NCBI GenBank assembly: GCA_041648665.1
Contig: JBAZOP010000002.1
Location: 50,262 to 114,261, forward strand
Length of the DNA stretch: 64,000 nucleotides
Direction of reading: 5' to 3'
Origin: a bacterium
Lineage (GTDB): Bacteria > UBA10199 > 2-02-FULL-44-16 > JAAZCA01
A program made the translations under genes and the position numbers. Within the stretch, counting starts at the first letter, position 1. The number at the start of each line of letters is the position of its first letter. Below the pieces are notes generated by a model. It was not told where the DNA came from, did not search any database, and worked only from the letters and a program-made list of their open reading frames with translations. This document shows positions 897 through 52,906 of the stretch, piece by piece.

Positions 897-940
897 TCAC
901 ACCCCTATATTAACCACTGAAACAGGTTTGTCAACAGGAA
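897..940 (-). promoter_or_regulatory. sigma70-like promoter (TTGACA, 16 nt, TAATAT) inside conserved CTGTTGACAAAC motif
   Basis: Minus-strand read CCTGTTGACAAACCTGTTTCAGTGGTTAATATAGG. It belongs to the 7-member motif family. Confidence 0.4.
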
Positions 941-943
941 AAG

Positions 944-1555
944 TTATGCAGCATCCCAGCGCTGCCAGCAGGCGAGGCAGAGGAGGTTGGTCGCGCCCGA
1001 AGCCCAGGCACGAACGCGCGCCTCCAAGATATCCGGAGGTGCCGTGCGCCGCAGATAGGCGCACGTGGATCCTGACAACCGGCGCTCCACCTGCGCCCCG
1101 CACCCAGGGCACTTCCACCCGACAACGATCGATCCGTCCCGTTGGACTTCCGCCTCATACTCGACCGGCCCACGGGTCCCCGTCCAACCGAATGGCCACT
1201 GCTCCGGGAGCGGCCGCTTCGCGTGAACACGCATCTTGCCCAAGCGAGCGCGGCCAGCCTTCTTGGGAATGGCAACGAACGAAGATTTGCGAGCTGCAGC
1301 AGCTTCCTCGCGAGCAACCGCTTCGATCTCTCGAATGCGGGCCAGCGCAGACGCCCGCTCGTGCTCTGGCGTGCCGCTATGCGCCGCCAGGGACTGGAGC
1401 CGCTGCAGCAGCTGAGATCGATTCACCTCGATCCTCCTCGCCGATCTGGCGGGACGACCTGGATCACAAGCGGCTCCGTCTTCTCGCGGAACAAGGCCCC
1501 AGCCGCGTACAGCCGCGTCTGCGCCTGCGCCTCCGGCAACCCACTGGGGTACCAC
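944..1555 (-). CDS. hypothetical protein with C-terminal zinc ribbon (CPGCG...CLAC); the true start is probably internal (about 1440)
   Basis: Long ORF; its N-terminus overlaps the 3' end of the phosphoesterase gene. The coiled region followed by CxxC...CxxC looks like genuine coding sequence. Confidence 0.4.
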   Translation of the reverse strand: MVPQWVAGGAGADAAVRGWGLVPREDGAACDPGRPARSARRIEVNRSQLLQRLQSLAAHSGTPEHERASALARIREIEAVAREEAAAARKSSFVAIPKKAGRARLGKMRVHAKRPLPEQWPFGWTGTRGPVEYEAEVQRDGSIVVGWKCPGCGAQVERRLSGSTCAYLRRTAPPDILEARVRAWASGATNLLCLACWQRWDAA

Positions 1556-2163
1556 GTGTAGCGCTCCTTGTGCTCGTGGCCCATCAGCACGATGTCGGCC
1601 CGCCCCAGGACCACCTCGAAGAACTCCTTCGCGTCCTTCAACCGGCAGAACCAGTCGGTGTAGTACGGGTTGTGGTGCAGGGCCACCACGCTCACCGCCC
1701 GGTGCTTCTTCATCTCATCCAGCTTCCACCTCAGCCTGGTGCGCTGCCAGAACCCCACGCGGCCCTGCGCGAAGTCCACGATGCTGCCGGTCCGCAGACA
1801 GGTGTCGAGGCCAATGATCTGCCCCACAGGGAAGCCATCCACGCGGAACATCCAGTTCGTCTCGGCAGCCAGCGCCACCCGCAGCGTGGCGAACCGCCGC
1901 ACGCAGTCCGCGCTGTAGAAGTTGCCCAGCCGCCCGAAGTCGTGGTTCCCGGGAACCAGCATCAGGCGCCCCGTGAACGGCGCGAGGAGCACTTCCGCCT
2001 TGGCGTACTGATCCTCCTTGCCGTCGTCCGTGATGTCGCCGGTCGCCACCACCACGTCGCCCGCCGTGAACATATCCAGGATGCCAGCGAGCTTCTCGCG
2101 CACCACGGCGTTGTCCTTGTTATTGCCGCGGATGTGCAGGTCGCTGATGTGGATGATGCGCAT
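1423..2163 (-). CDS. calcineurin-like metallophosphoesterase
   Basis: MRIIHISDLHIRG...ATGDITDDG...VPGNHD...ALHHNPY...MGHEHK are the classic metallophosphatase motifs. The start was taken at the internal ATG (M160 of the ORF-track product), which overlaps the upstream gene as ATGA. Confidence 0.75.
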   Translation of the reverse strand: MRIIHISDLHIRGNNKDNAVVREKLAGILDMFTAGDVVVATGDITDDGKEDQYAKAEVLLAPFTGRLMLVPGNHDFGRLGNFYSADCVRRFATLRVALAAETNWMFRVDGFPVGQIIGLDTCLRTGSIVDFAQGRVGFWQRTRLRWKLDEMKKHRAVSVVALHHNPYYTDWFCRLKDAKEFFEVVLGRADIVLMGHEHKERYTWYPSGLPEAQAQTRLYAAGALFREKTEPLVIQVVPPDRRGGSR

Positions 2164-2164
2164 T

Positions 2165-2653
2165 TCAGTCTTCCTTCCAACGCCAGGTCCAGATGTGGGC
2201 CGGCCGCAGGCTCCCGATCGGGGGCGATCGGAAGATGAACAGCGCGCTCTCGCGCGGGTTGCTCGTCTGCTTGATACCGGGGGGCGCCACGAACTGCACG
2301 CGCGGCGACAGCAGCCGAATCTCGGCGCCGGCCGCCACCGCCGCCCGCCACCACGCCGTCGAGGGAGCCACGAGGCCCACCAGCACCGCCGTGGACCGTG
2401 GTTCCCGACCCACCTCCGCAATGGCCTTCTGCACCCACCGCTCCATCCCGCTAAAGCCCGGGTTGCACCACACCGTCTGGGAACACAGGGGCGTGCAGCA
2501 GTCCTGGTCCGCCCCGTAGCCCTCCCGATGGACCGGGACCACCCGCGCCTGGCCCACGCCGAACCACGGCCGCGCCAGGCCATCCAAATCCGCGTCGAGG
2601 TAGTACGGAACCACAGCGTTGTCCGCGCTCGCAGCCACATCCAGGTCGAACAA
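2165..2653 (-). CDS. hypothetical protein
   Basis: ORF coupled to the phosphoesterase start. Only a TTG start with a weak SD is available. Confidence 0.4.
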   Translation of the reverse strand: MFDLDVAASADNAVVPYYLDADLDGLARPWFGVGQARVVPVHREGYGADQDCCTPLCSQTVWCNPGFSGMERWVQKAIAEVGREPRSTAVLVGLVAPSTAWWRAAVAAGAEIRLLSPRVQFVAPPGIKQTSNPRESALFIFRSPPIGSLRPAHIWTWRWKED

Positions 2654-2742
2654 GAACTCGGGCTGTAGAGCCCGCAGCAGATCGATCGGCGTGCGCCACT
2701 CCTACCGGATACTATGTTCAGACTCTACTTGCGCGTTTTCCA

Positions 2743-3024
2743 TCATCGGTCAGCTCCTCGCACGACCAAGGTGATCTCTAGTCGGTAATCTACCTCCGGA
2801 TGCAGCGCATAGAAGCTCTCGTTGGAGATCTTTTTTGTGCTTGCAACTGGATGCCCCATCTCTTCGAGAACCACATCTTGCGCCACAATGAGATCAGAAT
2901 GCTGAACTAGGCGCTGGTCATAGAGCGCACGCGCAGCAGCGAGGATCTCGCCTATCAGGCGATCTCGCTCGCGACGCGTTGCATCAGACATCTTCGCGAT
3001 CTGGTATCCGCCGCGTCTCGGCAT
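2743..3024 (-). CDS. hypothetical small protein (alternative start 2991)
   Basis: MPRRGGYQIAKMSDATRRERDRLIGEILAAARALYDQ... Two candidate ATGs follow the stop of the radical SAM gene. Confidence 0.4.
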   Translation of the reverse strand: MPRRGGYQIAKMSDATRRERDRLIGEILAAARALYDQRLVQHSDLIVAQDVVLEEMGHPVASTKKISNESFYALHPEVDYRLEITLVVRGADR

Positions 3025-3034
3025 GACATGCCAC

Positions 3035-3790
3035 CTACTTTCCTCGGGGCGCGGGGCGTCCCGCCTCCAGCAGGTCGTGCTTGAACAGGTGCGCGCGCCC
3101 CTCCAGGAGCCGCGTGGCCGCAGCGAGGAACTCCGGCCAGCTGATGGCCCGGGCCCGCGCGTCGTGGTTCCACTTCCCGACCTTGACAAGGTCGGTCCGG
3201 TCCCGCACCGCGTCGATCGCCCGCAGCCCCTCCGCGGCGTCCAGCACCGGCTCGACGCTGACCCAGGTCCGCACGCCCGCGTCCCGAGCCAGATCGAGGG
3301 CACGGAGGCGCTCCGCGATGGGCGGCGCATGCGGCTCCCAGTGCTGCCGCATCGCCTCGTCCAGGAAGCAGATCGTGGTGCCCAAGCTCCAGCCGCACCG
3401 ATGGAGCTGCGGAAACAGCGGTACCACAGCCAGCGGGTTCTTGGTCAGCACCGTGACCTGGAGCAGCTCACGCTCGGCGATCTCTAGCGCGACCCCGAGG
3501 GCCTCCGCCTGCTCCGCCGTGCCGAGCGGGTCGGTCGCGAAGCTAAACAGGATCTCCCGGGGATCGCCGCGGTGCGCCGCAGCCGATGCCTCGAACCGCG
3601 CCCGCCAGTTTAGCTTCGGTCGCACCGTGGGCCAGTCCTCGGGGCGCACGCGAAGAGCGGCAGACGCATAGCAATAGCGACAAGCGTGGGCACAGCAGAT
3701 GGCGAGGTTGCACGCCAGCGGGGCGTACTCCAGGGCGCGCCCCCGGGGCGTGTAGATGAGATCGTCGCGCGCGGCCATGCGGTCATGCAT
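3035..3790 (-). CDS. radical SAM protein, SplB/DNA-photolyase-like (COG1533-like)
   Basis: CCAHACRYCY fits CX3CX2C with the CYCY signature. The ORF-track start at 3814 is the TTG of the TTGACA -35 box. The real start is probably ATG MHDRMAARD (3790) or MAARD (3778), possibly leaderless. Confidence 0.6.
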   Translation of the reverse strand: MHDRMAARDDLIYTPRGRALEYAPLACNLAICCAHACRYCYASAALRVRPEDWPTVRPKLNWRARFEASAAAHRGDPREILFSFATDPLGTAEQAEALGVALEIAERELLQVTVLTKNPLAVVPLFPQLHRCGWSLGTTICFLDEAMRQHWEPHAPPIAERLRALDLARDAGVRTWVSVEPVLDAAEGLRAIDAVRDRTDLVKVGKWNHDARARAISWPEFLAAATRLLEGRAHLFKHDLLEAGRPAPRGK

Positions 3791-3817
3791 ACGACAGCGG
3801 TGGGCGTTTGTCAACGA
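3775..3817 (-). promoter_or_regulatory. promoter, TTGACA, 17 nt, TATGCA (conserved motif family)
   Basis: CGTTGACAAACGCCCACCGCTGTCGTATGCATGACCGCATGG on the minus strand. An ATG 7-13 nt after the -10 suggests a leaderless transcript. Confidence 0.4.
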
Positions 3818-4098
3818 GGAAGTGGGCCGGCAGCCGCGAATGATACCTGCTGCAATATGTTGAACAGTTTTCTGCCACGCTTCCGCCGCACTCGCTCTGC
3901 TTCCTGTTCCTCTGGCGTTAGGCTATCCCACCATTCCTGCGCCTTGCGCTTCACCTCTGCCTGCTCCCGCTCCCGCCGTTCCTCTGTGCGCGACCCGATG
4001 CCGTGCGCCCTTCGCCACTTCGCTTCGCCCATGGGTAACCTCATCGCTTTTCCAGCATACCTCTCCGTTGGCATGCCGATCAACCGCGCAGGCGCCAC
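3811..4098 (-). CDS. hypothetical basic/acidic small protein
   Basis: Strong SD GGAGGAAAGGGG about 8 nt upstream of ATG (MAPARLIG). The stop overlaps the radical SAM region. Confidence 0.45.
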   Translation of the reverse strand: MAPARLIGMPTERYAGKAMRLPMGEAKWRRAHGIGSRTEERREREQAEVKRKAQEWWDSLTPEEQEAERVRRKRGRKLFNILQQVSFAAAGPLPR

Positions 4099-4511
4099 AT
4101 CGGGCGCCCCTTTCCTCCACGAGGCCCAGACTCAAACCCAGCCGACGCCAGTCGCCCCTGACGCGACAGGCGCCCCAGGGCGGCCGCCACCCGCAAGGCC
4201 GCATCGGGAGCAACGGCAACCCCTTCGGCCAGGGCCCGATCTACCAGCGCTGCGCAGGTCTGCGCCTCACCCTGGAGGGCCCCCGCCACCCATGGCGCCA
4301 GCGAGCGCGCAAGTGCCGGGGGCTTCTGACAGCGCAGGCCGCCAACCTTAACCAGTACCTCCCGGGGCGCGTCCTCCCCTGGCAACTGGGCCTCCACCAC
4401 CACGCCACGTGGATCCACGCGCAGCACACGCACAGACAGGTTGGGACGCACGAGGCGAGCTTGGAATGGACCCCCTTGCATCAGCGCACGCACAGTACTC
4501 CAACGCACCAT
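4080..4511 (-). CDS. hypothetical protein
   Basis: ORF lying between the MazG-like gene and the 3811..4098 gene. No recognisable motifs. Confidence 0.4.
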   Translation of the reverse strand: MVRWSTVRALMQGGPFQARLVRPNLSVRVLRVDPRGVVVEAQLPGEDAPREVLVKVGGLRCQKPPALARSLAPWVAGALQGEAQTCAALVDRALAEGVAVAPDAALRVAAALGRLSRQGRLASAGFESGPRGGKGRPMWRLRG

Positions 4512-4514
4512 AGC

Positions 4515-4925
4515 TCACATCCTTTTCCCGCCGTGCCTGTATGGTCGGCCACGGTTGAACTCGATCTTGTCCCGCAGCGCCCTGGACAGGTCGATCCCGC
4601 GCTCCCCGCAGAAGTCGAAGACTCGGATCAGCACATCCGCCATCTCCTCGGCTACCCCGGGAACCCCAGGTAGGTGATCCGATGGAGCAGCAAGCCCCTC
4701 CGGACTCCGCAGGTACTCTAACGCCTCGGACAGCTCCGAGTGCATCAGTGCGATCAGATCCCCGTCGCTCCTCGGGGCGTCCCACCAGCCGTGCTCACGC
4801 GCGATCTGGTGACATTCGGCCACCATGGCCGCGATCCCATCACACCACATCCGAGGATCGTCTCCATCTTCCTTTTTGTACACAAACGCATACGGCCCAA
4901 CCTTTTTGAATGTATCTGTCATCAC
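4515..4925 (-). CDS. MazG-like nucleoside triphosphate pyrophosphohydrolase
   Basis: ALMHSELSEALE ... EEMADVLIRVFDF ... KIEFNRGRPYRHGGKRM are the typical all-alpha MazG/HisE motifs. The start is GTG-ATG (MM). Confidence 0.65.
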   Translation of the reverse strand: MMTDTFKKVGPYAFVYKKEDGDDPRMWCDGIAAMVAECHQIAREHGWWDAPRSDGDLIALMHSELSEALEYLRSPEGLAAPSDHLPGVPGVAEEMADVLIRVFDFCGERGIDLSRALRDKIEFNRGRPYRHGGKRM

Positions 4926-5098
4926 TGGCCTCTATTGCGGATCTTCACCGTTCGATCCTCGCGCCTCCGAACCTCACACTCGGCCAACTCCAGCAGATCG
5001 CGTAGCTGGTCAGCGTCCACCTCCACCTCGCTCCAATCGTCGTCGGACTCTGCCAGTCGCTTACGGAACGCATCGACCAATGTTCTCTCCTCACTCAT
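4922..5098 (-). CDS. small acidic protein (58 aa, below the ORF-track cutoff)
   Basis: Hand-translated: MSEERTLVDAFRKRLAESDDDWSEVEVDADQLRDLLELAECEVRRREDRTVKIRNRGQ. Its stop overlaps the MazG start (TGATG) and its start sits 7 nt after the upstream stop. Confidence 0.3.
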   Translation of the reverse strand: MSEERTLVDAFRKRLAESDDDWSEVEVDADQLRDLLELAECEVRRREDRTVKIRNRGQ

Positions 5099-5104
5099 CT
5101 CATC

Positions 5105-5383
5105 TCATCCATTCTTCGATGTGGAATCTCGCAGCAGATCGCCCAGGTTCGTCCCGATCTTCGGTCCGCGATGCCCACGATGCTTCCCATTGTCATGAAC
5201 TGAAGTACACGACGTCATCATTTCGCCCAACGGAAGAAGCTGTTTTGCCACCTTCATCCGAACCACCTGCTCCCACGCTTCCTCGACATCGGCATCCGTC
5301 GCCAGCCCAGCTTCTCGTTGCGCCAAAACCGCTTCCAGTCTCGCATTCGCATCGAGAAACTCCTTCTGCTTGGACTTCAACAT
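5105..5383 (-). CDS. hypothetical protein
   Basis: 92-aa ORF, coiled/charged. Confidence 0.4.
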   Translation of the reverse strand: MLKSKQKEFLDANARLEAVLAQREAGLATDADVEEAWEQVVRMKVAKQLLPLGEMMTSCTSVHDNGKHRGHRGPKIGTNLGDLLRDSTSKNG

Positions 5384-5391
5384 GAACGCTC

Positions 5392-5940
5392 CTACGACCT
5401 CGCGTGCGTCAGGATCTTGCGGAACTCACGCTGGTCGAAGATCGCCTGCCGCACCGTCGTCGCGATCTCCGTCTGACGCTCGACCGGGACAAGGACCTGC
5501 ACCGCGCCACCGGTCCGGTCGCTGGACCGGAAGATGAGCAACGACCACCCCATCAGCTTCATCCCGATGGGCGAATTGATGCCGAAGTCGTCGATCCGGA
5601 ACAGCTCGATGTTCTCACCGCCCTTGCTGAGCCAGCCCGTCTCGATGCCCAGCCGCTGCGTCGTGATCGTGAACCGGTTCGACGCCGACTCGTACCAGCG
5701 GCAGATCAGGTAGACCAGCCCGGGGATGACGAACAGCAGCAGCAGGAAGATCAGCAGGATGATCTGCCCGACGCTGTAGAACACCGGGATTTCCCCCTTG
5801 TAGACCAGCTTCTCCTCGGAAACCTCCTGGCGCTTCGCGTTCGCCACGAGGTCCTCGCCGCAGAACCGGCACTTCTTCGCCACCGCCCGGATGGGCTCCC
5901 CACAAATCGGGCACGGGATCAGGTCGTTCGCTTCGGACAT
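5392..5940 (-). CDS. zinc-ribbon plus transmembrane plus bacterial PH-like domain protein
   Basis: CPICG...CRFCG at the N-terminus and a hydrophobic helix IILLIFLLLLFVIPGLVYLI. The C-terminal region resembles a bPH/YdbT-like domain. Start taken at M23 (MSEANDL) because the track N-terminus overlaps the tRNA. GC is visibly lower than in neighbouring genes. Confidence 0.5.
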   Translation of the reverse strand: MSEANDLIPCPICGEPIRAVAKKCRFCGEDLVANAKRQEVSEEKLVYKGEIPVFYSVGQIILLIFLLLLFVIPGLVYLICRWYESASNRFTITTQRLGIETGWLSKGGENIELFRIDDFGINSPIGMKLMGWSLLIFRSSDRTGGAVQVLVPVERQTEIATTVRQAIFDQREFRKILTHARS

Positions 5941-5976
5941 GATTGCTCTCCCTTCGGTTGCGCGCCTACTCCTCGA

Positions 5977-6050
5977 TCGGGGCGAGAGGATTCGAACCTC
6001 CGACATCCAGCTCCCAAAGCTGGCGCGCTACCAGGCTGCGCTACGCCCCG
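5977..6050 (-). tRNA. tRNA-Pro (anticodon TGG)
   Basis: Minus-strand read CGGGGCG-TA-GCGC-AGCCTGGTA-GCGC-G-CCAGC-TTTGGGA-GCTGG-ATGTC-GGAGG-TTCGAAT-CCTCT-CGCCCCG-A. All four stems pair, with U8, GG in the D-loop, TTCGAAT in the T-loop and anticodon TGG. No encoded CCA. Confidence 0.8.
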
Positions 6051-6053
6051 TCG

Positions 6054-6533
6054 TCACCTCAATCCTTGGCCTCCACCCTCCCTTTCGGCGGCGCAATCGC
6101 AGAAGGAGCGCGCGGCCCCGACGACGCGCCAGATCTCCTCGGGCGGCTCCGCGTCCATGTAGCCGCAGAGCTGGCGGGCACCCCCCCCACACCGGGTGCC
6201 GGGGCACCCCTGCGCGACGAGGGCCTTGCAGCGCGCCAGCTCCCGCGCGTACCGGCTGGCGATCGCCCGGGCATCGTCCAGCTTGGCGCGCAGCGCCGGC
6301 CCTGGGTCGGCCCCCGGGGAGGGATCCGCCCCCGCGGCGGGCCCCGCGTCCGCACACGCCGCGCACCCGCAGGGATCGCGCGCCGGATCCTCGGCGAAGT
6401 CCTCCACGAAGATGACCCCCAGGAAGAAGAACCCGACCGCCGTCGCCAACTCCCCCAGGATCGGCGCCACGCACCGATCGAAGAAGCTTCGCGCCGGGAT
6501 CTGGTACCATCCGCCGCCTGCCCTCCGCGCCAT
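6054..6533 (-). CDS. Cys-rich membrane protein
   Basis: Start at MARRAGGG with SD AAGGGAG. TM helix ILGELATAVGFFFLGVIFV. Several CxC/CxxC clusters. The upstream part of the track ORF is GC-rich low-complexity sequence. Confidence 0.45.
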   Translation of the reverse strand: MARRAGGGWYQIPARSFFDRCVAPILGELATAVGFFFLGVIFVEDFAEDPARDPCGCAACADAGPAAGADPSPGADPGPALRAKLDDARAIASRYARELARCKALVAQGCPGTRCGGGARQLCGYMDAEPPEEIWRVVGAARSFCDCAAEREGGGQGLR

Positions 6534-6666
6534 GCCGCTCCCTTTCGCGCTCAAGGGCCCCGGGGCGCCCCCACCTGCGGGGGCCACCCCGGGATCCCAC
6601 ACAACCTGTAAGCAACCACGGGGCGCCGCTCGCTCGGCGCCCCGTCTCTCCACGTGGGCCGCGGTG

Positions 6667-6918
6667 CTAATCGTACCCGTCGGTGGCCTGCCCGGCCCTA
6701 TCCCGCACGCGGAGCCGCCGCGCCATCCCGTGCGCCAGCGCGGCCCTCCGGTGGCCCCAGCCCAGCGAGCCCGGCCCCCCCGCACGCGGGGGGTGCGCGC
6801 CGCCACGTGGCGAGAGCGACGCCCGGATCTCGCCCTGCGTCCGAACCGCCCACTGCCGCACGGGCCGGCCCCATCCCAGGGCCGCACGCACCGTCCGGAG
6901 CAGCGGGGAACGTAGCAT
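6667..6918 (-). CDS. Arg-rich small protein (83 aa)
   Basis: Internal ATG preceded by the strong SD TAGGAGGGG about 9 nt upstream. Otherwise a GC-rich region. Confidence 0.3.
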   Translation of the reverse strand: MLRSPLLRTVRAALGWGRPVRQWAVRTQGEIRASLSPRGGAHPPRAGGPGSLGWGHRRAALAHGMARRLRVRDRAGQATDGYD

Positions 6919-6931
6919 CGTCCTGCCCCTC

Positions 6932-7363
6932 CTACGCCTTGACCGCCCGCGCGCGCACCGCCGCAGCACGCTGTTCCCGCAGCTCCACCGCGAACGCCGG
7001 GAACCACCGCGGCGCCCCCGGCTCGTCCCGCCAGCGGCGGCCCGCGCGTTCCTCCTGGTCGTACTGCTCGCGGAGCGCGTCCAGGCCATCGATGACGATG
7101 TCCATCACCTCGTAGAACGCGGGCCCCCCCCCGGCCCTCTCCAGGATGATCCCCCGCTCGATCGGCGCCGACCGCAGTCGGCTCCGCGCGATCTGCCGGC
7201 CCCGCGTCCGCGAGAACCGACCCAGGTCCGGCGGCGAGCAGAACGCGCAGCCCACCCGGTACAGGGTGATGGGCCGGGGGGCCGGCCGCTGCTCCCGCTC
7301 GATGGCGAACGTCATCGCCCCGTACGCCGTCCGGTAGTGCTTGTAAAAGATCCCGTCCTGCAT
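6932..7363 (-). CDS. hypothetical protein
   Basis: Start at MQDGIFYKHY with SD GGGAGGG, directly downstream of the TTGACA-17-TATACT promoter. Confidence 0.45.
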   Translation of the reverse strand: MQDGIFYKHYRTAYGAMTFAIEREQRPAPRPITLYRVGCAFCSPPDLGRFSRTRGRQIARSRLRSAPIERGIILERAGGGPAFYEVMDIVIDGLDALREQYDQEERAGRRWRDEPGAPRWFPAFAVELREQRAAAVRARAVKA

Positions 7364-7398
7364 GGTAGCCCTCCCGCCGCGCATCCTACGCGGCATGC

Positions 7399-8478
7399 TC
7401 ACCCAGGAGTATAACCGCCGCTGGCGCGTTTGTCAACAGGTAAAACGCCTGGTTCCAGCGCACACGTGTGCGCCCCCTCCCCAGCGGGCCCCCACCCCAC
7501 GTCCAGCGGCTCCGCAGGTGGCCGGTACTCGCCCGCGTCCCGCCCGGCCGCGCGCCCCCGCTTAGCCCCCCCGGGGCCCGGGGCCAGGAACAGCCGCCAG
7601 AACCCCCCCACGAGGGCCTCGATGCTGGGCGCCGGGGCCAGCCGGCCCTGCGTGGTGGCCGCCACCGCCTCCCACCGCCCCACCGCGGCCCCCACCGTCC
7701 GCGCCACCAGCGCCTCCCCGTGCGCCCCCACCAGCGCCGCCACGCGCGCCCGGGTCCGGGGTGCCCACGCCGGCTCCGCCGCCACAGCGGGGCCGTAGCG
7801 GGCCTCCAGCGCAGCCACGTACACCGCCCGGATCCGATCCACCGCCCCCGGATCCCCCTCCCCTCCCTCGCTGCTGCCTTCTTCGATCTCCGTTTCGAGA
7901 TCGATCGCGCGCGCTACGCGCGGGGGGGGGATCTGTTCCTGTTCCTGTTCCTGTTCCTGTTCCTGGATCGGGGATGGCGTCCCGATGCCATCCGGTATGC
8001 CATCCGGTATGCCATCGAGAAGGCATCGCGCATGGCATCCGGAAGGCATCCGGAACGCCTTCCTGAAGGCTTTCAGGAAGGCAGGGGAGAGCCCCTCGCA
8101 CAAGGCTTCCAACAGGTGGAAAAAACTGCCCTTTAGCGGGCTACTGGGCAGCTCATCGAACGCCCGCGCCCACGATTTCAGCGCGTTCAGACTATTGGGC
8201 GTGTTGTACCGCAGGAAGTGCGGCAGCAGCACGACCTGGGCGTGCTCGTCGTACAGGGCGAACCCCTGCGCTTCGGCCTCCCGGAACGCGGCGATGTAGC
8301 GATCGAAGGGCCAGCGCTTCTCCGCCGCCAGCGCCTCCAGGCTGGCCTTGTACAGGCCGAACGGCGACGAGAGCGGCGTGGTTAGCAGGTGCAGGAAGAC
8401 CAGCTGGCAATCATCCGAGGCAAAGGGGAACTTGTCGTCGTTCCAGAGCAGGCAGTGCACCGTGCGGTACCGGCTCAT
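7399..8478 (-). CDS. putative replication initiation / replisome-organiser-like protein with internal repeat linker
   Basis: The N-terminal domain HCLLWNDDKFPFASDDCQLVFLHLL resembles phage replication-organiser N-domains. A DGIPDGIPDGIG and EQEQEQEQEQ linker follows. The C-terminal tail is translated across the promoter and palindrome, so the true 3' end is uncertain. Start at MSRYRTV overlaps the RHH stop as ATGA. Confidence 0.4.
   Translation of the reverse strand: MSRYRTVHCLLWNDDKFPFASDDCQLVFLHLLTTPLSSPFGLYKASLEALAAEKRWPFDRYIAAFREAEAQGFALYDEHAQVVLLPHFLRYNTPNSLNALKSWARAFDELPSSPLKGSFFHLLEALCEGLSPAFLKAFRKAFRMPSGCHARCLLDGIPDGIPDGIGTPSPIQEQEQEQEQEQIPPPRVARAIDLETEIEEGSSEGGEGDPGAVDRIRAVYVAALEARYGPAVAAEPAWAPRTRARVAALVGAHGEALVARTVGAAVGRWEAVAATTQGRLAPAPSIEALVGGFWRLFLAPGPGGAKRGRAAGRDAGEYRPPAEPLDVGWGPAGEGAHTCALEPGVLPVDKRASGGYTPG
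7403..7440 (-). promoter_or_regulatory. promoter, TTGACA, 17 nt, TATACT (conserved motif family)
   Basis: CTGTTGACAAACGCGCCAGCGGCGGTTATACTCC on the minus strand. The palindrome GCGCACACGTGTGCGC lies about 15 nt upstream of the -35 box. Confidence 0.5.
7933..7962. repeat. (CTGTTC)x5 hexanucleotide tandem repeat (encodes EQEQEQEQEQ on the minus strand)
   Basis: Read directly from the sequence. Lies inside the putative replication gene. Confidence 0.8.
7985..8017. repeat. 12-nt tandem repeat ATGCCATCCGGT, about 2.7 copies (encodes DGIPDGIPDGI)
   Basis: Read directly from the sequence, adjacent to the hexamer repeat. Confidence 0.75.
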
Positions 8479-8687
8479 GCTCCACCCCCCGGCGTGCACA
8501 CGTGTTCGCTCGGTTGCCCGGGATCCAGGTCCCGCAGGGTGCCCGCCTGCGCCTCGCGCTCGAACGCCTCATTGACCAGGGCCGACATCAGGTCCTGCAT
8601 GTTGACGCCGCGCACGGCGGCGAGCAGCTTCAGGCGCATCCGGGCTTCCGCGCCCAGGTGCACCGCCTTCCGATCATCGCTCGGCAT
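8475..8687 (-). CDS. ribbon-helix-helix (Arc/CopG-like) DNA-binding protein
   Basis: MPSDDRKAVHLGAEARMRLKLLAAVRGVNMQDLMSALVNEAFERE shows a beta-strand followed by two helices. SD GGAGGG sits 6 nt upstream. It is the first gene of the RHH-replication operon and diverges from the IS. Confidence 0.55.
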   Translation of the reverse strand: MPSDDRKAVHLGAEARMRLKLLAAVRGVNMQDLMSALVNEAFEREAQAGTLRDLDPGQPSEHVCTPGGGA

Positions 8688-8884
8688 TCTGTCCCTCCGG
8701 ATTGTGGAGGCAGACGGTACCATACCCAGATCACGGCAGGCAAGTACTTTCCGTGGGAAAGTGACGCGGCCTACTCTTCCTGCTCGCTGTTGTGGGATCG
8801 GTTGCCGGACATCAATGCCTCCGCGAGGGGACCGTCGTCTTTAGGCGACGGGAGAATCGCGGCCCCTCTCCGCTTGCTTTTCTG

Positions 8885-10115
8885 TTGACTTTCATCTGTT
8901 CATATGGGACTCTTGCATTGTGAGACGGACAATCATCATCGCGCTTGAGCCAGCCAACGAGCAGCTTGCTGCACTCACGGAGACCTGCGACCTGTTCACC
9001 GAGGTCTTCAACGCCGTCTGCACAGGCGGGTGGCAACACGCCGAAAAGAACGGGGTCCGCCTCCACCACGCCTTCTACCGGCCCCTCAAGGCCCAGCACC
9101 CGACCCTCGTGAGCGACCTGCATGTCCAGGCCCGCGTCAAAGCTACGGAGGCTATCCGAAGCGCGTTGGCCCTCAAACGCAAAGGCAAGAAAGTCTCCTG
9201 CCCGCACTCCACCTCTTGCCCCCCGCGCTACAACCTGCACACCTTCAAGATCGACTGGGCTTCCCGCACCGTGCGCCTGTCCACTACGGCGGGGCGCCAG
9301 ACCATCCGGTTCGCCGTCCCCGTTCACGCGGAGCGGTACGCCGAGCATCCAGTGGACACTGCCGATCTCGTCTGCTGCGAAGGTCGTTGGGCCATGCACG
9401 TCTCCGTCACCGTGCCTGCGCCCGCCGTCGATCCCGTCAATGACGTGGTGGGCGTGGACCTCGGGCTGGCCCAGCCAGCCGTCACGTCCAACAACCAGTT
9501 CCTGGGCAAAAAGGCATGGCGCTCTATCGAGAACCGGCTCTTCAAGCTGAAGCGCAGGCTGCAAGAACGAGGAACCAAGAGCGCCAAGCGCCATCTCAAA
9601 AAGATCCACAAGTCGCAAGCCAGGTTCCGCAGAGATTGCGACCACGTGCTCTCCAAGAAAGTTGTCCAGGCTTGCCCCGCTGGCGGCACGATCGTCTTGG
9701 AAAACCTGACCGACATCCGCAAGCGGGCACGGGCCAAGAGCAACACCGAAGCCAAGCGCCGCCTTCACGGGTGGTCCTTCGCGCAGATCAAGATCTTCAT
9801 CGCGTACAAAGCCGAGGAACGGGGTTGTACGGTGGCCGGGGTCGATCCCCGGCATACCTCGCAACGATGCTCTCGCTGTGGACACACGGCGAAGAACAAC
9901 CGCCGCTCCCGCGCCGTGTTCAAGTGTCGGAAGTGTGGATTTTCCCTCCACGCCGACTTGAACGCAGCTCGCAACATCGCGGCCAAGTACCAGACCCACG
10001 TCGGCATGCCCGATATGGGTGGGCACCCTGTCAACGTGCCTATCGCGGGAGTGGGTGAACTCGTTCATTCAGCTACCTGCAAGCCGCCCGCTTTAGCTGG
10101 CGGTCGTTGACGTAG
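8885..10115 (+). mobile_element. IS200/IS605-family TnpB-only insertion (IS1341-like); ends not defined
   Basis: Carries the intact TnpB gene, has lower GC than its flanks, and the CTGTTGAC promoter-like motif sits at its 5' side. Its 3' end overlaps the convergent gene 10073..10810. Confidence 0.5.
8920..10110 (+). CDS. tnpB: TnpB (OrfB) RuvC-like RNA-guided endonuclease, IS200/IS605 family
   Basis: RuvC-I VVGVDLGL, RuvC-II TIVLENLTD, zinc finger CSRCGH...CRKCG, RuvC-III HADLNAARNIA. All catalytic D/E/D residues are present. Confidence 0.8.
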   Translation: MRRTIIIALEPANEQLAALTETCDLFTEVFNAVCTGGWQHAEKNGVRLHHAFYRPLKAQHPTLVSDLHVQARVKATEAIRSALALKRKGKKVSCPHSTSCPPRYNLHTFKIDWASRTVRLSTTAGRQTIRFAVPVHAERYAEHPVDTADLVCCEGRWAMHVSVTVPAPAVDPVNDVVGVDLGLAQPAVTSNNQFLGKKAWRSIENRLFKLKRRLQERGTKSAKRHLKKIHKSQARFRRDCDHVLSKKVVQACPAGGTIVLENLTDIRKRARAKSNTEAKRRLHGWSFAQIKIFIAYKAEERGCTVAGVDPRHTSQRCSRCGHTAKNNRRSRAVFKCRKCGFSLHADLNAARNIAAKYQTHVGMPDMGGHPVNVPIAGVGELVHSATCKPPALAGGR

Positions 10116-10810
10116 CAGCGGCGCTGGAGCAGGTGGATGGGCTCCCCAAGTGCCGCCGGCTCCCCCGCCCGGGCCTGCACGGCCTCCTCGCTGAGCCCAG
10201 CGTAGAGGTCCAGAGACAGCAGCCGCTGGTCGATGCCAGCGCGGACCTCCCGCTGGTCGGCGATGACGGCCTCCACCGGGATCGTCTCGGCATGCATCAG
10301 CCGCCCGAGCCGCTCCGAGGTGTCCCGGATTTGCTTGTACAGGGCGGGGATCTCCTCCGCCTTGGCGCGCTCCAGGGCCTGCCGGTAGGCGGGGATCGGC
10401 TCGTCGCCGCGCAGGGCCAGCGCCGCGGCCTCCCCGCCGCCACCCTCCTCGGGGAGCGCCCGCCCGGGGGCCACGCCAAGCCGCAGCATGAGCGCCTCCA
10501 GGTCGCCAGTCAGCGCCCGCAACTGCTCCTTCTGCCGGGCGCCCGCGGCCCGGAGGACCGCTGGACCGTCGGGGCACAGCGTGCACGATGCCGCCAAGGC
10601 ATCGTAACTAATGCGCGTCACATACTCACCGGCGCCATCCTCGATGACACCACGCAGCAGGACGTAGTTGCTGCCTAAGCGGACGACGCAACCGAGCCAG
10701 CGCTGCCCATCGTCCGGATCCATTACCCAGTACCACTCGCCCACCAGTGGCAGGTCTTCCGGCCGCTCGCGTGTTTTTGTAGGCGCGCACACCTTGTCCA
10801 AGTTGCTCAT
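10073..10810 (-). CDS. hypothetical protein
   Basis: Start MSNLDK with SD GGAGG, directly downstream of a perfect TTGACA-17-TATAAT promoter. Confidence 0.5.
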   Translation of the reverse strand: MSNLDKVCAPTKTRERPEDLPLVGEWYWVMDPDDGQRWLGCVVRLGSNYVLLRGVIEDGAGEYVTRISYDALAASCTLCPDGPAVLRAAGARQKEQLRALTGDLEALMLRLGVAPGRALPEEGGGGEAAALALRGDEPIPAYRQALERAKAEEIPALYKQIRDTSERLGRLMHAETIPVEAVIADQREVRAGIDQRLLSLDLYAGLSEEAVQARAGEPAALGEPIHLLQRRCYVNDRQLKRAACR

Positions 10811-10859
10811 CGCGCCTCCGCAGCAGGTTCGCCGCCAGCATCCTCACTGGCCATTTCCT

Positions 10860-10896
10860 TTCAATTATAACCAGTCGGTATGCGTTTGTCAACATA
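10860..10896 (-). promoter_or_regulatory. consensus sigma70 promoter, TTGACA, 17 nt, TATAAT (conserved motif family)
   Basis: ATGTTGACAAACGCATACCGACTGGTTATAATTGA on the minus strand. Confidence 0.6.
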
Positions 10897-12594
10897 TTAG
10901 GATCGCGTCGTGACGCGCAGAATTTCACCGCTGCGGAGGCCGACCACGGTGTCCCCGGCCGCGACCAGCCGCAACCCGGCGACCGCGGGATCGGCAATGC
11001 GACGGCCGACCTGCGCCCCGCGCTCGGGGAAGAGGGACAGCTCGCCGCCCTCGTCGATCAGGGCCACCACGCCCCGGGCAAGTCGGGCGACGTTCAGCGC
11101 GCCATGACCCACGTTACGATCGGCCCAGCGCAGCTGGGCGCCCGCACTGCCCACCGCGTACACGTAGCGGTCGACGCTGCCCCCGCGCTCGGCCAGGACC
11201 AGCAGGGCGCGCCCCCCGGCCCAGGCGTCCACCACGCGGGCGCCGTCCAGATCCGCCAGCCGCACCTGGTCGCTGCGGCCCGGGGCCGGGAACACGTTCG
11301 CGTACCACGCGCCCAGCACGCTCTGGAGGGCCACGCCGGGGTACAGCTGCGTCGCCAGGGGCGCCACGTTGGCCACCACGCGCGGGGCGGCAACGAGCTG
11401 CCCCCCCAGGCGCGCCAGCTGCACCTCGACCACGTGCTCGCCATCGTGGGCGTACAGGCGACCCTCGGCGGTGGTCAGCGCCGCAGCCTGCACGACGAGG
11501 GGCACCTCCGCCCCGCCATCCAGGGCGCGCATCCGGAGGCGCTGGCGGTCGATCCAGGCGTAGAGCGGCGTGCCGTCGGGGGCCCATGCCAGGGATCCCG
11601 CGCCATCCACGGGGACCTGCCGAGGAGGCCGGGTGCCGTCCCATAGCGTCACCGCGCACCCCGCTGGTCCCCGGACCAAAGCTGCCTCCGCGCCGCCGGG
11701 GATCGCCACGTACTCCAGCACATCCCCATCCACGACATGGAGCACGCGCAGGTCCACGTGCCCGGCGCTCGAAGCAGGCCGCAGCCCACGCATGGGCGCG
11801 CTGGCTTGGGCGCTGGCGGGCGGGGGATCGCGGCGGCCGGCCTCGAACACAGCGCGGTACCAGTCGCGATAGGCGCTCGGGATCACGTCTAGGGGCGGCA
11901 CCAGCGGGGGCACCGACACGGCGGCGTTGAACACCGAGAGGTTGGCGCGCATGCGATCGGGCAGACCACGCACCGTGGGGTGGCGCCCCTTGTAGGGGTG
12001 GATGCCAACGAACAGCTGGAAGGTCACGATGCCCCAGGAAAACCAGTCGGATCCTGTGGTCCAGCAGCCCTGGGCGTGCCAATCCCGCACGCTCTCCATC
12101 AGGGCGGTGGCCGGGAAGCGAGGCGTCTGGTAGGAGTCCACATCGATGAAGCACACCTCCTCGAAGGTGGCGGTGGCCAGGAAGTTCATCTCGTTGGCGT
12201 CCACCACCAGCACGCGGGCGGCGTGCACTGCCTCCATGCTGGCGCGCATGCGCTGCACGAGGCGCAGCACCGTGGAGCCATCCAGGCCGTGCCGCGCCTG
12301 GAATGCCCGGGTGAAGAGCTGGCAGAGCGGGAAGGCATCCGGAACACGGCGCATGCTGTAGCCGACCGGGCGCCCCCGGCCGTCCAGCAGCACGCGCTGC
12401 GGCCGGATCACGCTGTCGTCAGCGATCGCGCTCAACTCGTCGATCTTAGCCTCGGGGACCATGCGCTCGGGCTTCAGGTAGACCTTGAACGCCTCGTCCC
12501 CGTGAGCGTAGACCTGCCCCTCGCCGCCCGCGCCCAGGAAGTTGGCCTGGGTCAGCACGACCTCGCCGCCCCCCCGCATTCGGTACTTCGTCAT
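10897..12594 (-). CDS. Ser/Thr protein kinase-like protein with C-terminal repeat/beta-rich domain
   Basis: Gly-loop LGAGGEGQVY, AFKVY lysine, a D-x4-N catalytic loop (VVDANEMN), DVD in the DFG position, and DWFSWGIVTFQLFVGIHPY as the subdomain IX equivalent. Last gene of the vWA-PP2C-kinase triad. Confidence 0.6.
   Translation of the reverse strand: MTKYRMRGGGEVVLTQANFLGAGGEGQVYAHGDEAFKVYLKPERMVPEAKIDELSAIADDSVIRPQRVLLDGRGRPVGYSMRRVPDAFPLCQLFTRAFQARHGLDGSTVLRLVQRMRASMEAVHAARVLVVDANEMNFLATATFEEVCFIDVDSYQTPRFPATALMESVRDWHAQGCWTTGSDWFSWGIVTFQLFVGIHPYKGRHPTVRGLPDRMRANLSVFNAAVSVPPLVPPLDVIPSAYRDWYRAVFEAGRRDPPPASAQASAPMRGLRPASSAGHVDLRVLHVVDGDVLEYVAIPGGAEAALVRGPAGCAVTLWDGTRPPRQVPVDGAGSLAWAPDGTPLYAWIDRQRLRMRALDGGAEVPLVVQAAALTTAEGRLYAHDGEHVVEVQLARLGGQLVAAPRVVANVAPLATQLYPGVALQSVLGAWYANVFPAPGRSDQVRLADLDGARVVDAWAGGRALLVLAERGGSVDRYVYAVGSAGAQLRWADRNVGHGALNVARLARGVVALIDEGGELSLFPERGAQVGRRIADPAVAGLRLVAAGDTVVGLRSGEILRVTTRS
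10903..10925 (-). terminator. possible hairpin terminator (CGCGTC-AC-GACGCG inverted repeat) after the kinase gene
   Basis: The inverted repeat sits immediately 3' of the kinase stop. No strong U-tract. Confidence 0.25.
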
Positions 12595-14155: not shown

Positions 14156-14187
14156 CGGTTCCCTCGCCTTCCTGCTAGCGCACCGCG

Positions 14188-14991: not shown

Positions 14992-15003
14992 CGGATCCTC
15001 CTC

Positions 15004-15753: not shown

Positions 15754-15755
15754 CG

Positions 15756-36217: not shown

Positions 36218-36229
36218 GGCTCTACCTCG

Positions 36230-39687: not shown

Positions 39688-39704
39688 AGCGTCGTCCTCC
39701 TAAA

Positions 39705-44411: not shown

Positions 44412-44477
44412 CTTCCTACCCTATCACGCCAGCGCGCGAAAGGCACGCTGCTGGACCAGCGAACACGTGTGCGCCGA

Positions 44478-44819
44478 TCAGTCGAGGGGGCATCCTGGCA
44501 TCTCCGGTAGGCCCGGCAGCCCCGGGATCGCCGGGATCGGCAACCCGGGGATGGGAATCGCCAGCTTCAGCGTCGGCAACCCCAGCGACAGCCCCACACT
44601 TGGGAGCCCTGGCAGCCCTGGCAGCCCCGGGGGGGACGGGAGCGCGAACGGCAGCCCCGGCACCGGGATCGCCAGCGTCAGGGAGGGCAGCCCCAGCGAC
44701 ACGCCAAAGGACGGGAGGCTGGGCAGCCCTGGCAGCCCCGGGATCGCCGGGATCGGTAGCCCGGGCACGGGGATCGCCAGCGCCAGCGTGGGCGGCGTCG
44801 GGATCCGGCAGTTCGACAT
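44478..44819 (-). CDS. Pro/Leu/Gly-rich (GLP)n repeat protein
   Basis: Strong SD GAAGGAG 8 nt upstream of ATG. About 35-aa units (LAIPVPGLPIPAIPGLPGLPSLPSFGVSLGLPSLT) repeated roughly 2.5 times. Confidence 0.45.
   Translation of the reverse strand: MSNCRIPTPPTLALAIPVPGLPIPAIPGLPGLPSLPSFGVSLGLPSLTLAIPVPGLPFALPSPPGLPGLPGLPSVGLSLGLPTLKLAIPIPGLPIPAIPGLPGLPEMPGCPLD
44490..44800. repeat. about 105-nt tandem repeat, roughly 2.5 copies, underlying the GLP-repeat protein
   Basis: Repeated PGLPGLP / LAIP(V/I)PGLP blocks visible in the translation and in the DNA. Confidence 0.5.
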
Positions 44820-51530: not shown

Positions 51531-51563
51531 CGATGCCTCCTACCAGCGAACACGTGTGCGCTC

Positions 51564-52609
51564 CTACCTTCGCCTGCGCGCATGCCGCCGCGCGGATGCC
51601 GCCTGCTGCTCCGCCTGGGAGCGCCGCGACTCTTCGAGGCGCCCCTTCTGCTCCACGAACCGCTTGCGGCGGCTGTATGGCATGCCCATGATGCTGTCGT
51701 AGGTGCCACCTTGCAGCTCCATGAGGAAGAACACCTCGCTCTCCTGCGCCGCTAGGGCGCCGAGGGGAAGAAAAAACTGGGCTGCCCCAGGTTCAAGTCG
51801 TCCCGCCACTCATGCTGACACGACGGACACGCAAAGTCTACTACCGTGTCCACGTGGCCTTCGTACTGCTCGAAGAGGGCCCGGATCTCGTTGCGGTCCC
51901 GCGTGGGGAGCCCCTTCAGGCACGCCATGGCCTCCTTGTGCTTCCGATCGCGCTCGACGGGCACGCCGTCGATGGCCTCCACGCGCGTCAGCAGCCCCAG
52001 CGTCAGCGTGTCCTCCTTGCGCTTGCCCTTCGCGCTCAGCCACTCCTCGTCCGCCGCGGTCATGACGTGCCAGCGCACCACGCGCCCGGAGGACAGCGTG
52101 TGCTCCCACACCCGCTGCGTCCGATCCTGCATCGGCCGGATCTCGACCTGCGCGAGGTCCAGCGTGTAGCGCACCTCGTCGCGGCATTCCGGGCTGGGGC
52201 ACTGCACCTTGACCTCGTACTGGTCGCCCAGTGACACGCGCCGGATGGCCAGGAGGGCCACCATGCGATCGCTGGCCGTCAGCGCCGCCACCGCTGCGTT
52301 GAGCGCCGCCCGATCATCGATGTTGCCAAGCCGGTGCGTGCAGTTCAGGATGATCTGGTTGAGCCGCTGAAGCACCGGGCCCTTCGCCGTCAGCAGGTCC
52401 TCCTCGTACCCCGTCATCTCGCCCACCACCAGCTCGCTGTGCACGCTCCCCTCCCGGTCCAGGTAGCCGCACGGCAGCTCCACCGTCAGCACGGTGGGGC
52501 GGATATCGGACCGATCCCAGTCCTGCTGCACCGCTGCCAGCTTCTCCTTGGTCGGCACGATCGGCGCCTCCGGCGCCCCCTGCTCGCCCTTCTGATCCTG
52601 ATCCGTCAT
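51564..52609 (-). CDS. tail assembly chaperone frameshift fusion product (GT-like, via -1 PRF)
   Basis: A -1 slip at T_TTT_TTC joins the 285-aa frame to FFLPLGALAAQESEVFF...RRHARRRR*, which ends 34 nt before the TMP start. Confidence 0.45.
51752..52609 (-). CDS. tail assembly chaperone (G-like, 285 aa, with CxxC...CxxC zinc ribbon)
   Basis: Ends ...QPSFFFPSAP* at the slippery site. Overlaps the -1 frame ORF 51564..51809. Confidence 0.5.
   Translation of the reverse strand: MTDQDQKGEQGAPEAPIVPTKEKLAAVQQDWDRSDIRPTVLTVELPCGYLDREGSVHSELVVGEMTGYEEDLLTAKGPVLQRLNQIILNCTHRLGNIDDRAALNAAVAALTASDRMVALLAIRRVSLGDQYEVKVQCPSPECRDEVRYTLDLAQVEIRPMQDRTQRVWEHTLSSGRVVRWHVMTAADEEWLSAKGKRKEDTLTLGLLTRVEAIDGVPVERDRKHKEAMACLKGLPTRDRNEIRALFEQYEGHVDTVVDFACPSCQHEWRDDLNLGQPSFFFPSAP
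51770..51776 (-). promoter_or_regulatory. -1 programmed ribosomal frameshift slippery heptamer T_TTT_TTC
   Basis: Minus strand CCC AGT TTT TTC TTC. The zero frame stops 8 codons later and the -1 frame continues for 70 codons. Confidence 0.55.
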
Positions 52610-52803
52610 TGCTCTTGCACCTTTCTATGTGCCCGCTGCGCATCCAGCGACAGCAGCTCTGCTTCGGCGCGGCGCTCCTGCCGCACCCAGCCGACGATCA
52701 ACTCGCGCACCACGTCCGAGAGCGACCGCCCCAGGCGATCCGCGCGATCCCGGAACTCCACCAGCACGTCCTCTTGGATTTCCATATTGAGCCTCGACAT
52801 GCT
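52606..52803 (-). CDS. ribbon-helix-helix (CopG/Arc-like) protein heading the tail operon
   Basis: MSRLNMEIQEDVLVEFRDRADRLGRSLSDVVRELIVGWV. SD GGAGGTAGC. ATGA overlap with the chaperone gene. Confidence 0.55.
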   Translation of the reverse strand, partial: SMSRLNMEIQEDVLVEFRDRADRLGRSLSDVVRELIVGWVRQERRAEAELLSLDAQRAHRKVQEQ

Positions 52804-52814
52804 ACCTCCTGCGC

Positions 52815-52848
52815 ACAGTCTACGCATGATCTGCGCACGCGGTCAACC
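52815..52848 (-). promoter_or_regulatory. promoter, TTGACC, 18 nt, TAGACT, with flanking TGCGCA...TGTGCGCA inverted repeat (possible RHH operator)
   Basis: GGTTGACCGCGTGCGCAGATCATGCGTAGACTGTGCGCAGGAGG on the minus strand. Confidence 0.4.
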
Positions 52849-52876
52849 ATCCGGCCCCAAAAAAGTGCAGGCATAG

Positions 52877-52906
52877 GGTTGACAAACGCAATGGAGGCAT
52901 TATTAT
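52877..52906 (+). promoter_or_regulatory. plus-strand promoter, TTGACA, 16 nt, TATTAT (conserved motif family, only plus-oriented copy)
   Basis: GGTTGACAAACGCAATGGAGGCATTATTATAG. Diverges from the RHH/tail promoter. Confidence 0.5.

Follow-up and report, generated by a model that had tools for sequence, protein, structure and literature searches.

The window analysed here, a 64,000-nt stretch of contig JBAZOP010000002.1, is phage DNA, with genes for the tail sheath, for baseplate wedge and hub proteins and for other tail proteins (PHROGs scan), and it carries seven copies of an extended −35 promoter box, some of them followed by a conserved hairpin in the transcript leader. Judged by its gene content, the window comes from a large uncultured myovirus with no close cultured relatives. 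Megablast against 50,697 phage records gave no nucleotide match for 32 kb of the window, and the best match of the tail sheath among cultured phages had 33% identity (tblastn). Almost all genes lie on the minus strand, and the GC content of the window is 66%. Six of the boxes, all on the minus strand, are located within 1–20 kb and head non-structural operons; the genes around them are those for radical SAM, Dam-like methyltransferase, metallophosphatase and PP2C proteins and for tRNA-Pro, and genes for VWA, NAD synthase (NadE), NAPRTase and L7/L12 C-terminal-domain proteins lie in the same region. No copy was found in the minus-strand tail genes at 20–52 kb. The single plus-strand copy lies in a 169-bp divergent region within the tail module, where it heads the sole plus-strand gene cassette.

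Seven promoters in the window

Six of the copies are identical over the 12-mer GTTGACAAACGC, and the seventh, P1, reads GTTGACAAACCT, ending in CT instead of GC (Table 1). The first-pass annotation had located all seven to within 1–2 nt and had listed their −10 hexamers correctly. It had proposed a longer 14-mer, of which the 12-mer core was upheld; the CT prefix was dropped, being present in only three of the seven copies (924, 7426 and 18830). When up to two mismatches were allowed, the box matched the window 10 times compared to a mean of 3.95 in 100 dinucleotide-preserving shuffles, none of which reached 10. The two-mismatch hits at 4878, 48271 and 48672 are intragenic and have no −10 partner, and they were not accepted as family members.

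All seven copies contain an exact TTGACA. A TANNNT hexamer follows at 16–17 bp in six of them, and the remaining copy, at 3804, has TATGCA at 17 bp; the spacer is 16 bp in P1 and P7 and 17 bp in P2–P6. Given a background TANNNT rate of 0.0023 per position in this GC-rich window, the binomial probability of at least six of seven copies having such a hexamer at this distance is about 7e-14. Exact TTGACA occurs 18 times in the window and is continued by AAC in seven cases. Six of these AAC-extended hexamers account for every TTGACA in the window with TANNNT at 16–18 bp, the seventh being the copy at 3804; the other 11 have neither the AAC extension nor a −10. Each copy is co-oriented with the adjacent genes and lies at a gene boundary, with the start codon 8–55 nt past the −10. 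With a perfect −35, a spacer of 17 ± 1 bp, a TANNNT −10 and a co-oriented gene downstream, the seven sites are, on sequence grounds, promoters of the sigma-70/sigmaA type. The TGA inside TTGACA doubles as the stop codon of incoming open reading frames (ORFs) at 19941–19943, 3811–3813 and 931–933 (minus strand).

The leaders of P1, P3, P4, P5 and P7 are 45–55 nt long and carry a GGAGG-type Shine-Dalgarno sequence (SD). Hairpins are present in the leaders of P1, P3, P4 and P5, where the loop ends in GAU and the 3′ arm starts with G; that of P7 is degenerate. The first-pass description of an SD and then a start codon behind each promoter fails at P2, where the ATG (3776–3778) starts 8 nt past TATGCA with no SD, and at P6 the leader is only about 14 nt long, with GAAGGA, no hairpin and the ATG of gene 19529–19894 at 19892–19894. 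The annotated TTG start of the radical SAM ORF (3035–3814) is indeed, as had been noted, the TTG of the P2 −35 box (3812–3814), and the true start is the ATG named above. Since this ATG lies so close to the −10 and is not preceded by an SD, the radical SAM mRNA is probably leaderless.

Table 1. Promoters, leader hairpins and palindromes of the window, with leader hairpins of related phages (L numbers)
Feature	Position	Strand	Description
P1 promoter	907–935	minus	Box GTTGACAAACCT 924–935; −35 929–934; spacer 16 bp; −10 TAATAT 907–912; drives gene 429–857 (SWIM-like zinc-finger protein)
P1 leader hairpin	871–890	minus	GCCCGGC-gcggau-GCUGGGC; 3 nt to GGAGG; ATG 855–857; covariance model 19 bits, E 0.004, outside training set
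P2 promoter	3786–3815	minus	Box GTTGACAAACGC 3804–3815; −10 TATGCA 3786–3791; drives radical SAM gene 3035–3778; no hairpin, no SD
P3 promoter	7408–7437	minus	Box GTTGACAAACGC 7426–7437; −10 TATACT 7408–7413; drives gene 6932–7363; overlaps last ~25 codons of upstream ORF 7399–8478, no true gap
P3 leader hairpin	7375–7395	minus	UGCCGCGU-aggau-GCGCGGCG; GGGAGGG immediately after; ATG 7361–7363; 28.6 bits
P4 promoter	10864–10893	minus	Box GTTGACAAACGC 10882–10893; −10 TATAAT 10864–10869; 12/12 consensus matches; drives gene 10073–10810
P4 leader hairpin	10834–10851	minus	GCCAGU-gaggau-GCUGGC; AAAUG upstream; 13.8 bits, E 0.14
P5 promoter	18812–18841	minus	Box GTTGACAAACGC 18830–18841; −10 TAAGCT 18812–18817; after palindrome and T-run terminator-like site 18859–18879; heads ~8-kb operon from 18765 down to 10897 (L7/L12 C-terminal domain, NAPRTase, NadE, VWA and PP2C genes)
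P5 leader hairpin	18778–18800	minus	GGCAGGGU-cgaagau-GCCCUGCC; 1–3 nt to GGGAGG; ATG 18763–18765
P6 promoter	19916–19945	minus	Box GTTGACAAACGC 19934–19945; −10 TAATGT 19916–19921; upstream ORF stop 19941–19943 is the TGA of TTGACA
P7 promoter	52878–52906	plus	Box GTTGACAAACGC 52878–52889; spacer 16 bp; −10 TATTAT 52901–52906; drives cassette 52955–54251
P7 leader	52914–52937	plus	AGAUG, then degenerate hairpin CCGGGC-gcuaa-GCCC(A)GG (52918–52937); loop without GAU
Leader hairpins in relatives	L002 3778–3809, 5391–5422; L068 498–529; L018 10113–10144; others
Palindrome copies	7458–7473, 8494–8509, 18859–18874, 21243–21258, 29726–29741		Ten copies in the window
Palindrome copies (continued)	35672–35687, 44459–44474, 51546–51561, 53103–53118, 58298–58313

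Conservation of the box and the leader hairpin in related phages

Related phages were represented by 27 IMG/VR loci identified by tail-sheath homology (43–71% identity) and 5 identified through a 565-aa protein; these were chosen without motif selection and range from 34 to 68% in GC content. They contain nine distinct exact TTGACA-N16-18-TANNNT sites. AAC comes next in six of the nine, so the extended motif is shared by related phages, a point which the first-pass annotation had put forward for checking; the remaining three sites, from the most distant relative, have CAC or AGC after TTGACA. A G precedes TTGACA at six of the nine sites. Individual relatives carry GTTGACAAACGC in three copies (L002, 68% GC), GTTGACAAACGA and GTTGACAAACCG (L145, 55% GC), the variant GTTGACGAACGG (L001), or GTTGACAAACTC and GTTGACAAACTT (L015 and L018, 35% GC). 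The site in L015 and L018 adjoins the baseplate-hub gene and is directed away from it, as P7 is in the window. In L068 the orthologue of gene 429–857 (57% identity) has the same promoter (at 3464) and the hairpin in front of it. Genes downstream of the L002 promoters had no match in PHROGs.

Over 24 sites with a 17-bp spacer, the information content is close to zero upstream, in the spacer and downstream, and it is high at G−36 and at the G and C following TTGACAAAC, the nine bases of which were required by the scan. G−36 is present at 23 of the 24 sites. In variant boxes ahead of hairpins that the covariance model described below detected, GTTGA and AACGC are retained and the CA of the hexamer varies (GTTGATGAACGC, GTTGAATAACGC). 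The first-pass annotation had left the choice between a common origin and an added recognition element; selection on the extension is favoured and recent duplication is not, because spacers and flanks are unconserved. The extension of the box beyond TTGACA is under selection across the phage clade.

A scan of the collection for the 12-mer with TANNNT returned more than 117 contigs, which is about chance level by a rough estimate of collection size. Many of these contigs are unrelated low-GC phages with promoter families of their own, and a universal extended −35 was rejected; second copies of the box in unrelated contigs are explained by such phage-specific families and by ascertainment. A search of the literature found TTGACAAACG only in primers and in other unrelated contexts. 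Reading AAC as the mark of an extracytoplasmic-function (ECF) sigma promoter was rejected, the conserved downstream positions being T-A-N-N-N-T and not CGT, and so was the box as a palindrome, GCGgTTGaCAAaCGC, the upstream half of which is unconserved in the window.

The leader hairpin consists of RGAU, a GC stem of 6–7 bp and an NNGAU loop, followed after 0–9 nt by the SD. By strict criteria it is present in 21 of 34 clade leaders compared to 0.3 expected from shuffles and 0.8 from random windows of the same loci. It follows the box in relatives across the whole range of GC content, as GGAUG-CCCGGC-gcgau-GCCGGG-GGAGG in L002 and as AGAUA-GUCGA-uaagauu-UCGAC-AGAAAGGA in L018; the hairpin loops of the P7 counterparts in L015 and L018 are u(a/g)agauu. 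The loop is GNGA plus U in 12 of 22 instances, and the others are AAGAU, AGGAU or 6–7 nt long. Fourteen pentaloop instances align without gaps, with the loop GAU invariant and a second GAU exactly 12 nt upstream of it. In this alignment 91.8% of the cells are paired, compared to 62% in shuffles and 36–45% with a slid partner, a percentage that is partly built in through assembly of the instances by hairpin search; compensatory double changes occur at all seven stem pairs. Since the instance set was pre-selected, the case for the hairpin is carried by the slid and shuffled controls and by independent model matches.

A generic hairpin scan was too permissive (about 100 matches, mostly intragenic) and was replaced by a covariance model, which recovered the window hairpins outside its training set (864–896, 10826–10858 and 18766–18791) and nothing else convincing in the window. 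The model, R1, matched 44 times in 600 kb of relatives but only once in 894 kb of unrelated contigs in which the same 12-mer occurs. New matches in the relatives lie 0–9 nt before an SD and ATG, and the boxes ahead of most of them are variants (GTTGATGAACGC, GTTGAATAACGC, GTTGACAGTCGC, GTCGACAAACAT). A box with up to three mismatches was found within 75 nt upstream of 28 of 36 hairpins, versus about 3% of random positions. Rfam has no family for the hairpin, yielding only tRNA-Pro for 700–20100 both at the gathering threshold and at E up to 5. The element is thus a candidate new cis-regulatory RNA family, supported by covariation and without an Rfam counterpart. A CsrA/RsmA site was rejected, GGA being absent from about 13 of 22 loops (GCGAU, GAGAU, AAGAU), and none of the readings as leader peptide, Dam (GATC) site or sigma-dependent pause element fits all instances.

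Intergenic palindromes and neighbouring genes

The palindrome GCG[CA]ACACGTGT[GT]CGC occurs in ten copies in the window compared to 0.09 expected. In the non-structural and the tail regions alike, most copies occupy the gap from a stop codon to the following SD, and two are directly upstream of P3 and P5. The core CGAAC-N4-GTTCG is present in relatives at all GC contents, with a density of 1.5 per 10 kb versus 0.09 in unrelated contigs, and it takes the place of the GAU hairpin in some of their promoter leaders (L068 5524, L012 15677). Because the arm sequences are conserved, the palindrome may bind a protein, terminate transcription or direct processing. Another hairpin, GCAGC-gcugggau-GCUGC at 948–965 (minus strand), followed by AUAACUUUUCCU, lies 12 nt upstream of P1; it is terminator-like, yet has the GAU-G loop signature of the leader hairpins.

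The divergent control region at 52606–52954 includes a gene for an Arc-like ribbon-helix-helix protein (52606–52785, minus strand; PHROG 6506, E 4e-6). This gene has its own weaker promoter, TTGACC-N18-TAGACT (52817–52846, minus strand), which stands back to back with P7 and whose −10 hexamer is flanked on both sides by the direct repeat GTGCGCAG.

In the P5 operon, the gene at 16958–17503 (minus strand) encodes a protein whose N-terminus is coiled-coil-like and whose C-terminal domain is that of ribosomal L7/L12 (Pfam PF00542, E 3e-22), and it adjoins the NAD salvage pair of NAPRTase and NAD synthase. Among named bacterial proteins the homologues of the NAPRTase (e.g., in Halomonas) reach no more than 46% identity and are uninformative on the host; NadE, also used for host inference, had no relative among the 185,579 genomes scanned. 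The product of 2165–2653 (minus strand) belongs to the Dam family of N6-adenine DNA methyltransferases (PF05869, E 2e-16) and has an orthologue in L068 with 48% identity.

Collagen-like Gly-Pro-Thr and Pro-Gly repeats (GGTCCnACnGGTCC...) are encoded on the minus strand at 29264–29528, a stretch missed by crude gene calling, and at 44478–44819, and probably belong to tail-fibre proteins. The tail module also contains two low-GC islands (30608–30960 and 35657–39704, GC 0.52–0.58 compared to 0.66 overall), the larger of which carries a 1041-aa tail protein (36562–39687); the islands may be horizontally acquired host-range determinants.

Interpretation and comparison with known systems

In our view the boxes probably constitute a strong −35/−10 promoter family that starts non-structural, presumably early, transcription units and one antisense cassette in the tail module, most likely through the host RNA polymerase with its primary sigma factor. 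The box would then be G (−36), TTGACA (−35 to −30), AAC (−29 to −27) and G-C (−26, −25), with TANNNT 12 bp further on. Reading of all seven promoters by the host polymerase with primary sigma is proposed because of their perfect fit to the universal sigma-70 elements. Since selection keeps positions outside the hexamer clade-wide, these would carry information as well: the extension may tune polymerase binding, as is thought for T4 early promoters, or may be the site of a clade-encoded regulator sitting on the −35. The leader hairpin would act in cis on the RNA, governing how well the first cistron is translated and/or how stable it is, probably through a bound trans-acting factor. A protein-binding operator with this role is favoured because the loop GAU is invariant and the second GAU keeps a fixed register, because the stem covaries freely and because the hairpin always abuts the SD.

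Several observations weigh against this interpretation. Neither a TGn nor an UP element is conserved at the 24 sites, which lack a T at −15, have G at −14 in 12 of 24 and carry less than 0.5 bit upstream. Many sequences of relatives were fetched with the 12-mer itself, so the conservation of the terminal GC is partly ascertained and only G-TTGACA-AAC-(G) is treated as securely conserved; low-GC relatives have TT or TC in place of the terminal GC, which is typical of mid- and high-GC members. Two of the seven window promoters (P2 and P6) have no hairpin and the loop of P7 is degenerate, and three hairpins in relatives are intercistronic, with no upstream promoter. The window hairpins do not individually exceed shuffled GC-rich sequence in stability (z −0.3 to −1.5), and because thermodynamic significance is absent in this GC-rich window the case for them is a comparative one. 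Use of host sigma-70 is what we infer by analogy, and so is early timing, for which the gene context (non-structural genes at 1–20 kb) speaks; the functions of AACGC and of the hairpin are likewise inferred. Finally, the box persists in phages with a GC content of 34–68%, presumably with very different hosts, which fits a phage-encoded reader equally well or better.

The box could instead be the site of a phage-encoded transcription factor, either an activator with sigma appropriation as in MotA/AsiA-type middle promoters or a repressor of the operator/stoperator type, with TTGACA just part of a 10–12-bp site. A clade-encoded DNA-binding factor is a serious rival, because the box persists across so wide a GC range and its variants hold GTTGA..AACGC when hexamer positions 5–6 change. 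In addition, the conserved block from −36 to −25 matches the footprint of a MotA box, the 12-mer ends exactly 12 bp before the −10, the asymmetric 12–13-mer occurs in many copies always oriented with transcription, as cluster A stoperators do, and the window has two ribbon-helix-helix genes, one adjoining P7. However, the box contains a perfect sigma-70 −35, whereas MotA boxes replace the −35, and each copy is accompanied by a −10 at constant distance, which sets the family apart from stoperators. Proteins resembling MotA, AsiA, L5 gp71 or a sigma factor were not recognised among about 50 ORFs of the 64-kb window (Pfam, PHROGs), and the operator-like sequence by the Arc-like gene is a different repeat, GTGCGCAG, present twice. 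We regard this explanation as rather unlikely. That the extension is functionless, with all copies derived from one ancestral cassette in which AACGC has not yet mutated, is very improbable. The identity of six copies over 12 bp and the 8 of 12 bases shared by the P4 and P5 spacers would agree with it, but identity ends sharply at the box, information being about zero in the spacer, upstream and in the leader, and the box is kept where sheaths are only 43–70% identical and GC varies from 34 to 68%, a divergence over which neutral bases would have randomised.

For the hairpin, a factor-independent 5′ structure that shields the 5′ end from RNase E/J-type decay and keeps the SD single-stranded is possible but rather improbable. 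In about half of the leaders RGAU lies 7–9 nt past the −10 (+1 to +3), which places the stem within 3–5 nt of the 5′ end, a strong GGAGG comes immediately after the hairpin, and the stem sequence varies freely; but the other half have 4–10 extra unpaired nucleotides ahead of the element, and the loop GAU and the second GAU 12 nt upstream, kept from 35 to 68% GC, are structurally unneeded. Antitermination is a more doubtful role, in which the hairpin would be a nut/boxB-like loading site for read-through of the CGAAC-N4-GTTCG palindromes as terminators. In keeping with this role, there is one hairpin per transcript right after the promoter, a linear RGAU stands upstream as boxA does, and ten palindromes separate genes of the window, including the pair close ahead of P3 and P5. 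Moreover, the 12 of 22 loops of the form GNGA plus U amount to a GNRA tetraloop with an extra base, which is how lambda boxB (N-boxB) folds. Antitermination does not need the tight juxtaposition to the SD (median 2–3 nt), however; the palindromes mostly have no U tracts and occur also in late operons lacking the hairpin, three hairpin instances are intercistronic, and no arginine-rich N-like protein was identified, the 45-aa product of 52955–53092 being only suggestive.

Box and hairpin could also be read together, as a clade-specific two-part module served by phage-encoded proteins: a DNA-binding or sigma-remodelling factor on GTTGA..AACGC (−36 to −25) and an RNA-binding factor on RGAU-stem-NNGAU. 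The DNA factor would explain how the box survives across widely differing GC content and presumably host phyla, and the RNA factor could be an N-like antiterminator acting on CGAAC-N4-GTTCG, or a RegA/RegB-like repressor or nuclease silencing first cistrons. We consider such a module somewhat unlikely; if true, an uncultured large-myovirus lineage would possess a temporal switch of a kind not described before.

Retention of the extension and of a 30-nt leader RNA from 34 to 68% GC suggests that these phages carry their own readers, and the box and hairpin motifs, as bait DNA, bait RNA or reporter mutants, are handles for finding them. Phage-specific promoter families with an extended consensus are already well known; new here are the clade-wide demonstration of one such family and its coupling to a leader RNA motif that is undescribed and backed by covariation. 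The promoter sites supply a transcription-unit map for an uncultured large phage (~160 kb), put right at least one gene start, that of radical SAM, and point to a leaderless mRNA, and the G-TTGACA-AAC box with the hairpin model can be used for locating operon heads throughout this metagenomic phage clade.

Among known systems, the early promoters of the large lytic myovirus T4, termed 'über' sigma-70 promoters, likewise have a consensus beyond the sigma-70 elements (Hinton 2010, PMC2988021). As here, they are present many times over in non-structural regions of a large myovirus genome, match −35 and −10 excellently and have additional conserved positions outside the canonical elements. In contrast to them, the extra consensus of the present family lies 3′ (AACGC) and 5′ (G) of the −35, there is no TGn or UP element, and a leader hairpin is coupled to the promoter. 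T4 middle promoters carry the MotA box from −35 to −26, 12 ± 1 bp from the −10 (PMC2988021), and thus share with our sites a phage box of about 10 bp at about −36 to −26, some 12 bp from TANNNT. They differ in that the box described here contains a perfect TTGACA, which sigma region 4 could bind unaided, and in that no MotA or AsiA homologue was seen among the 50 window ORFs scanned (Pfam, PHROGs).

The operators and stoperators of cluster A mycobacteriophages (L5 gp71, TipsytheTRex repressor) are asymmetric 13-mers, present in many copies and oriented with transcription (PMC9283540). The resemblance lies in a repeated asymmetric sequence of 12–13 bp that is strictly oriented and overlaps a TTGACA-type −35 at an early promoter. 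Most stoperators are not promoters; they are intergenic, lack promoter elements and interfere with elongation, whereas each copy here has a spaced −10 and heads a transcription unit, and a cognate repressor was not found among the approximately 50 window ORFs scanned.

For the leader, lambda and P22 nut sites similarly combine a short linear element with a GC hairpin after early promoters; the boxB pentaloop is GNRA-like, a form that 12 of 22 of the present loops resemble. Here, however, RGAU stands instead of boxA CGCUCUUA, the loop is NNGAU, the hairpin abuts the SD, there are many such promoters per genome, and an N-like protein was not recognised by PHROGs. The MS2 coat-protein operator hairpin, T4 RegA and T4 RegB (GGAG cleavage) offer a further parallel: messages of one temporal class share a conserved RNA signal that coincides with or adjoins the ribosome-binding site. 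The targets of RegA and RegB lack structure and cover part of the SD or AUG, whereas the element described here is a covarying GAU-loop hairpin placed ahead of the SD.

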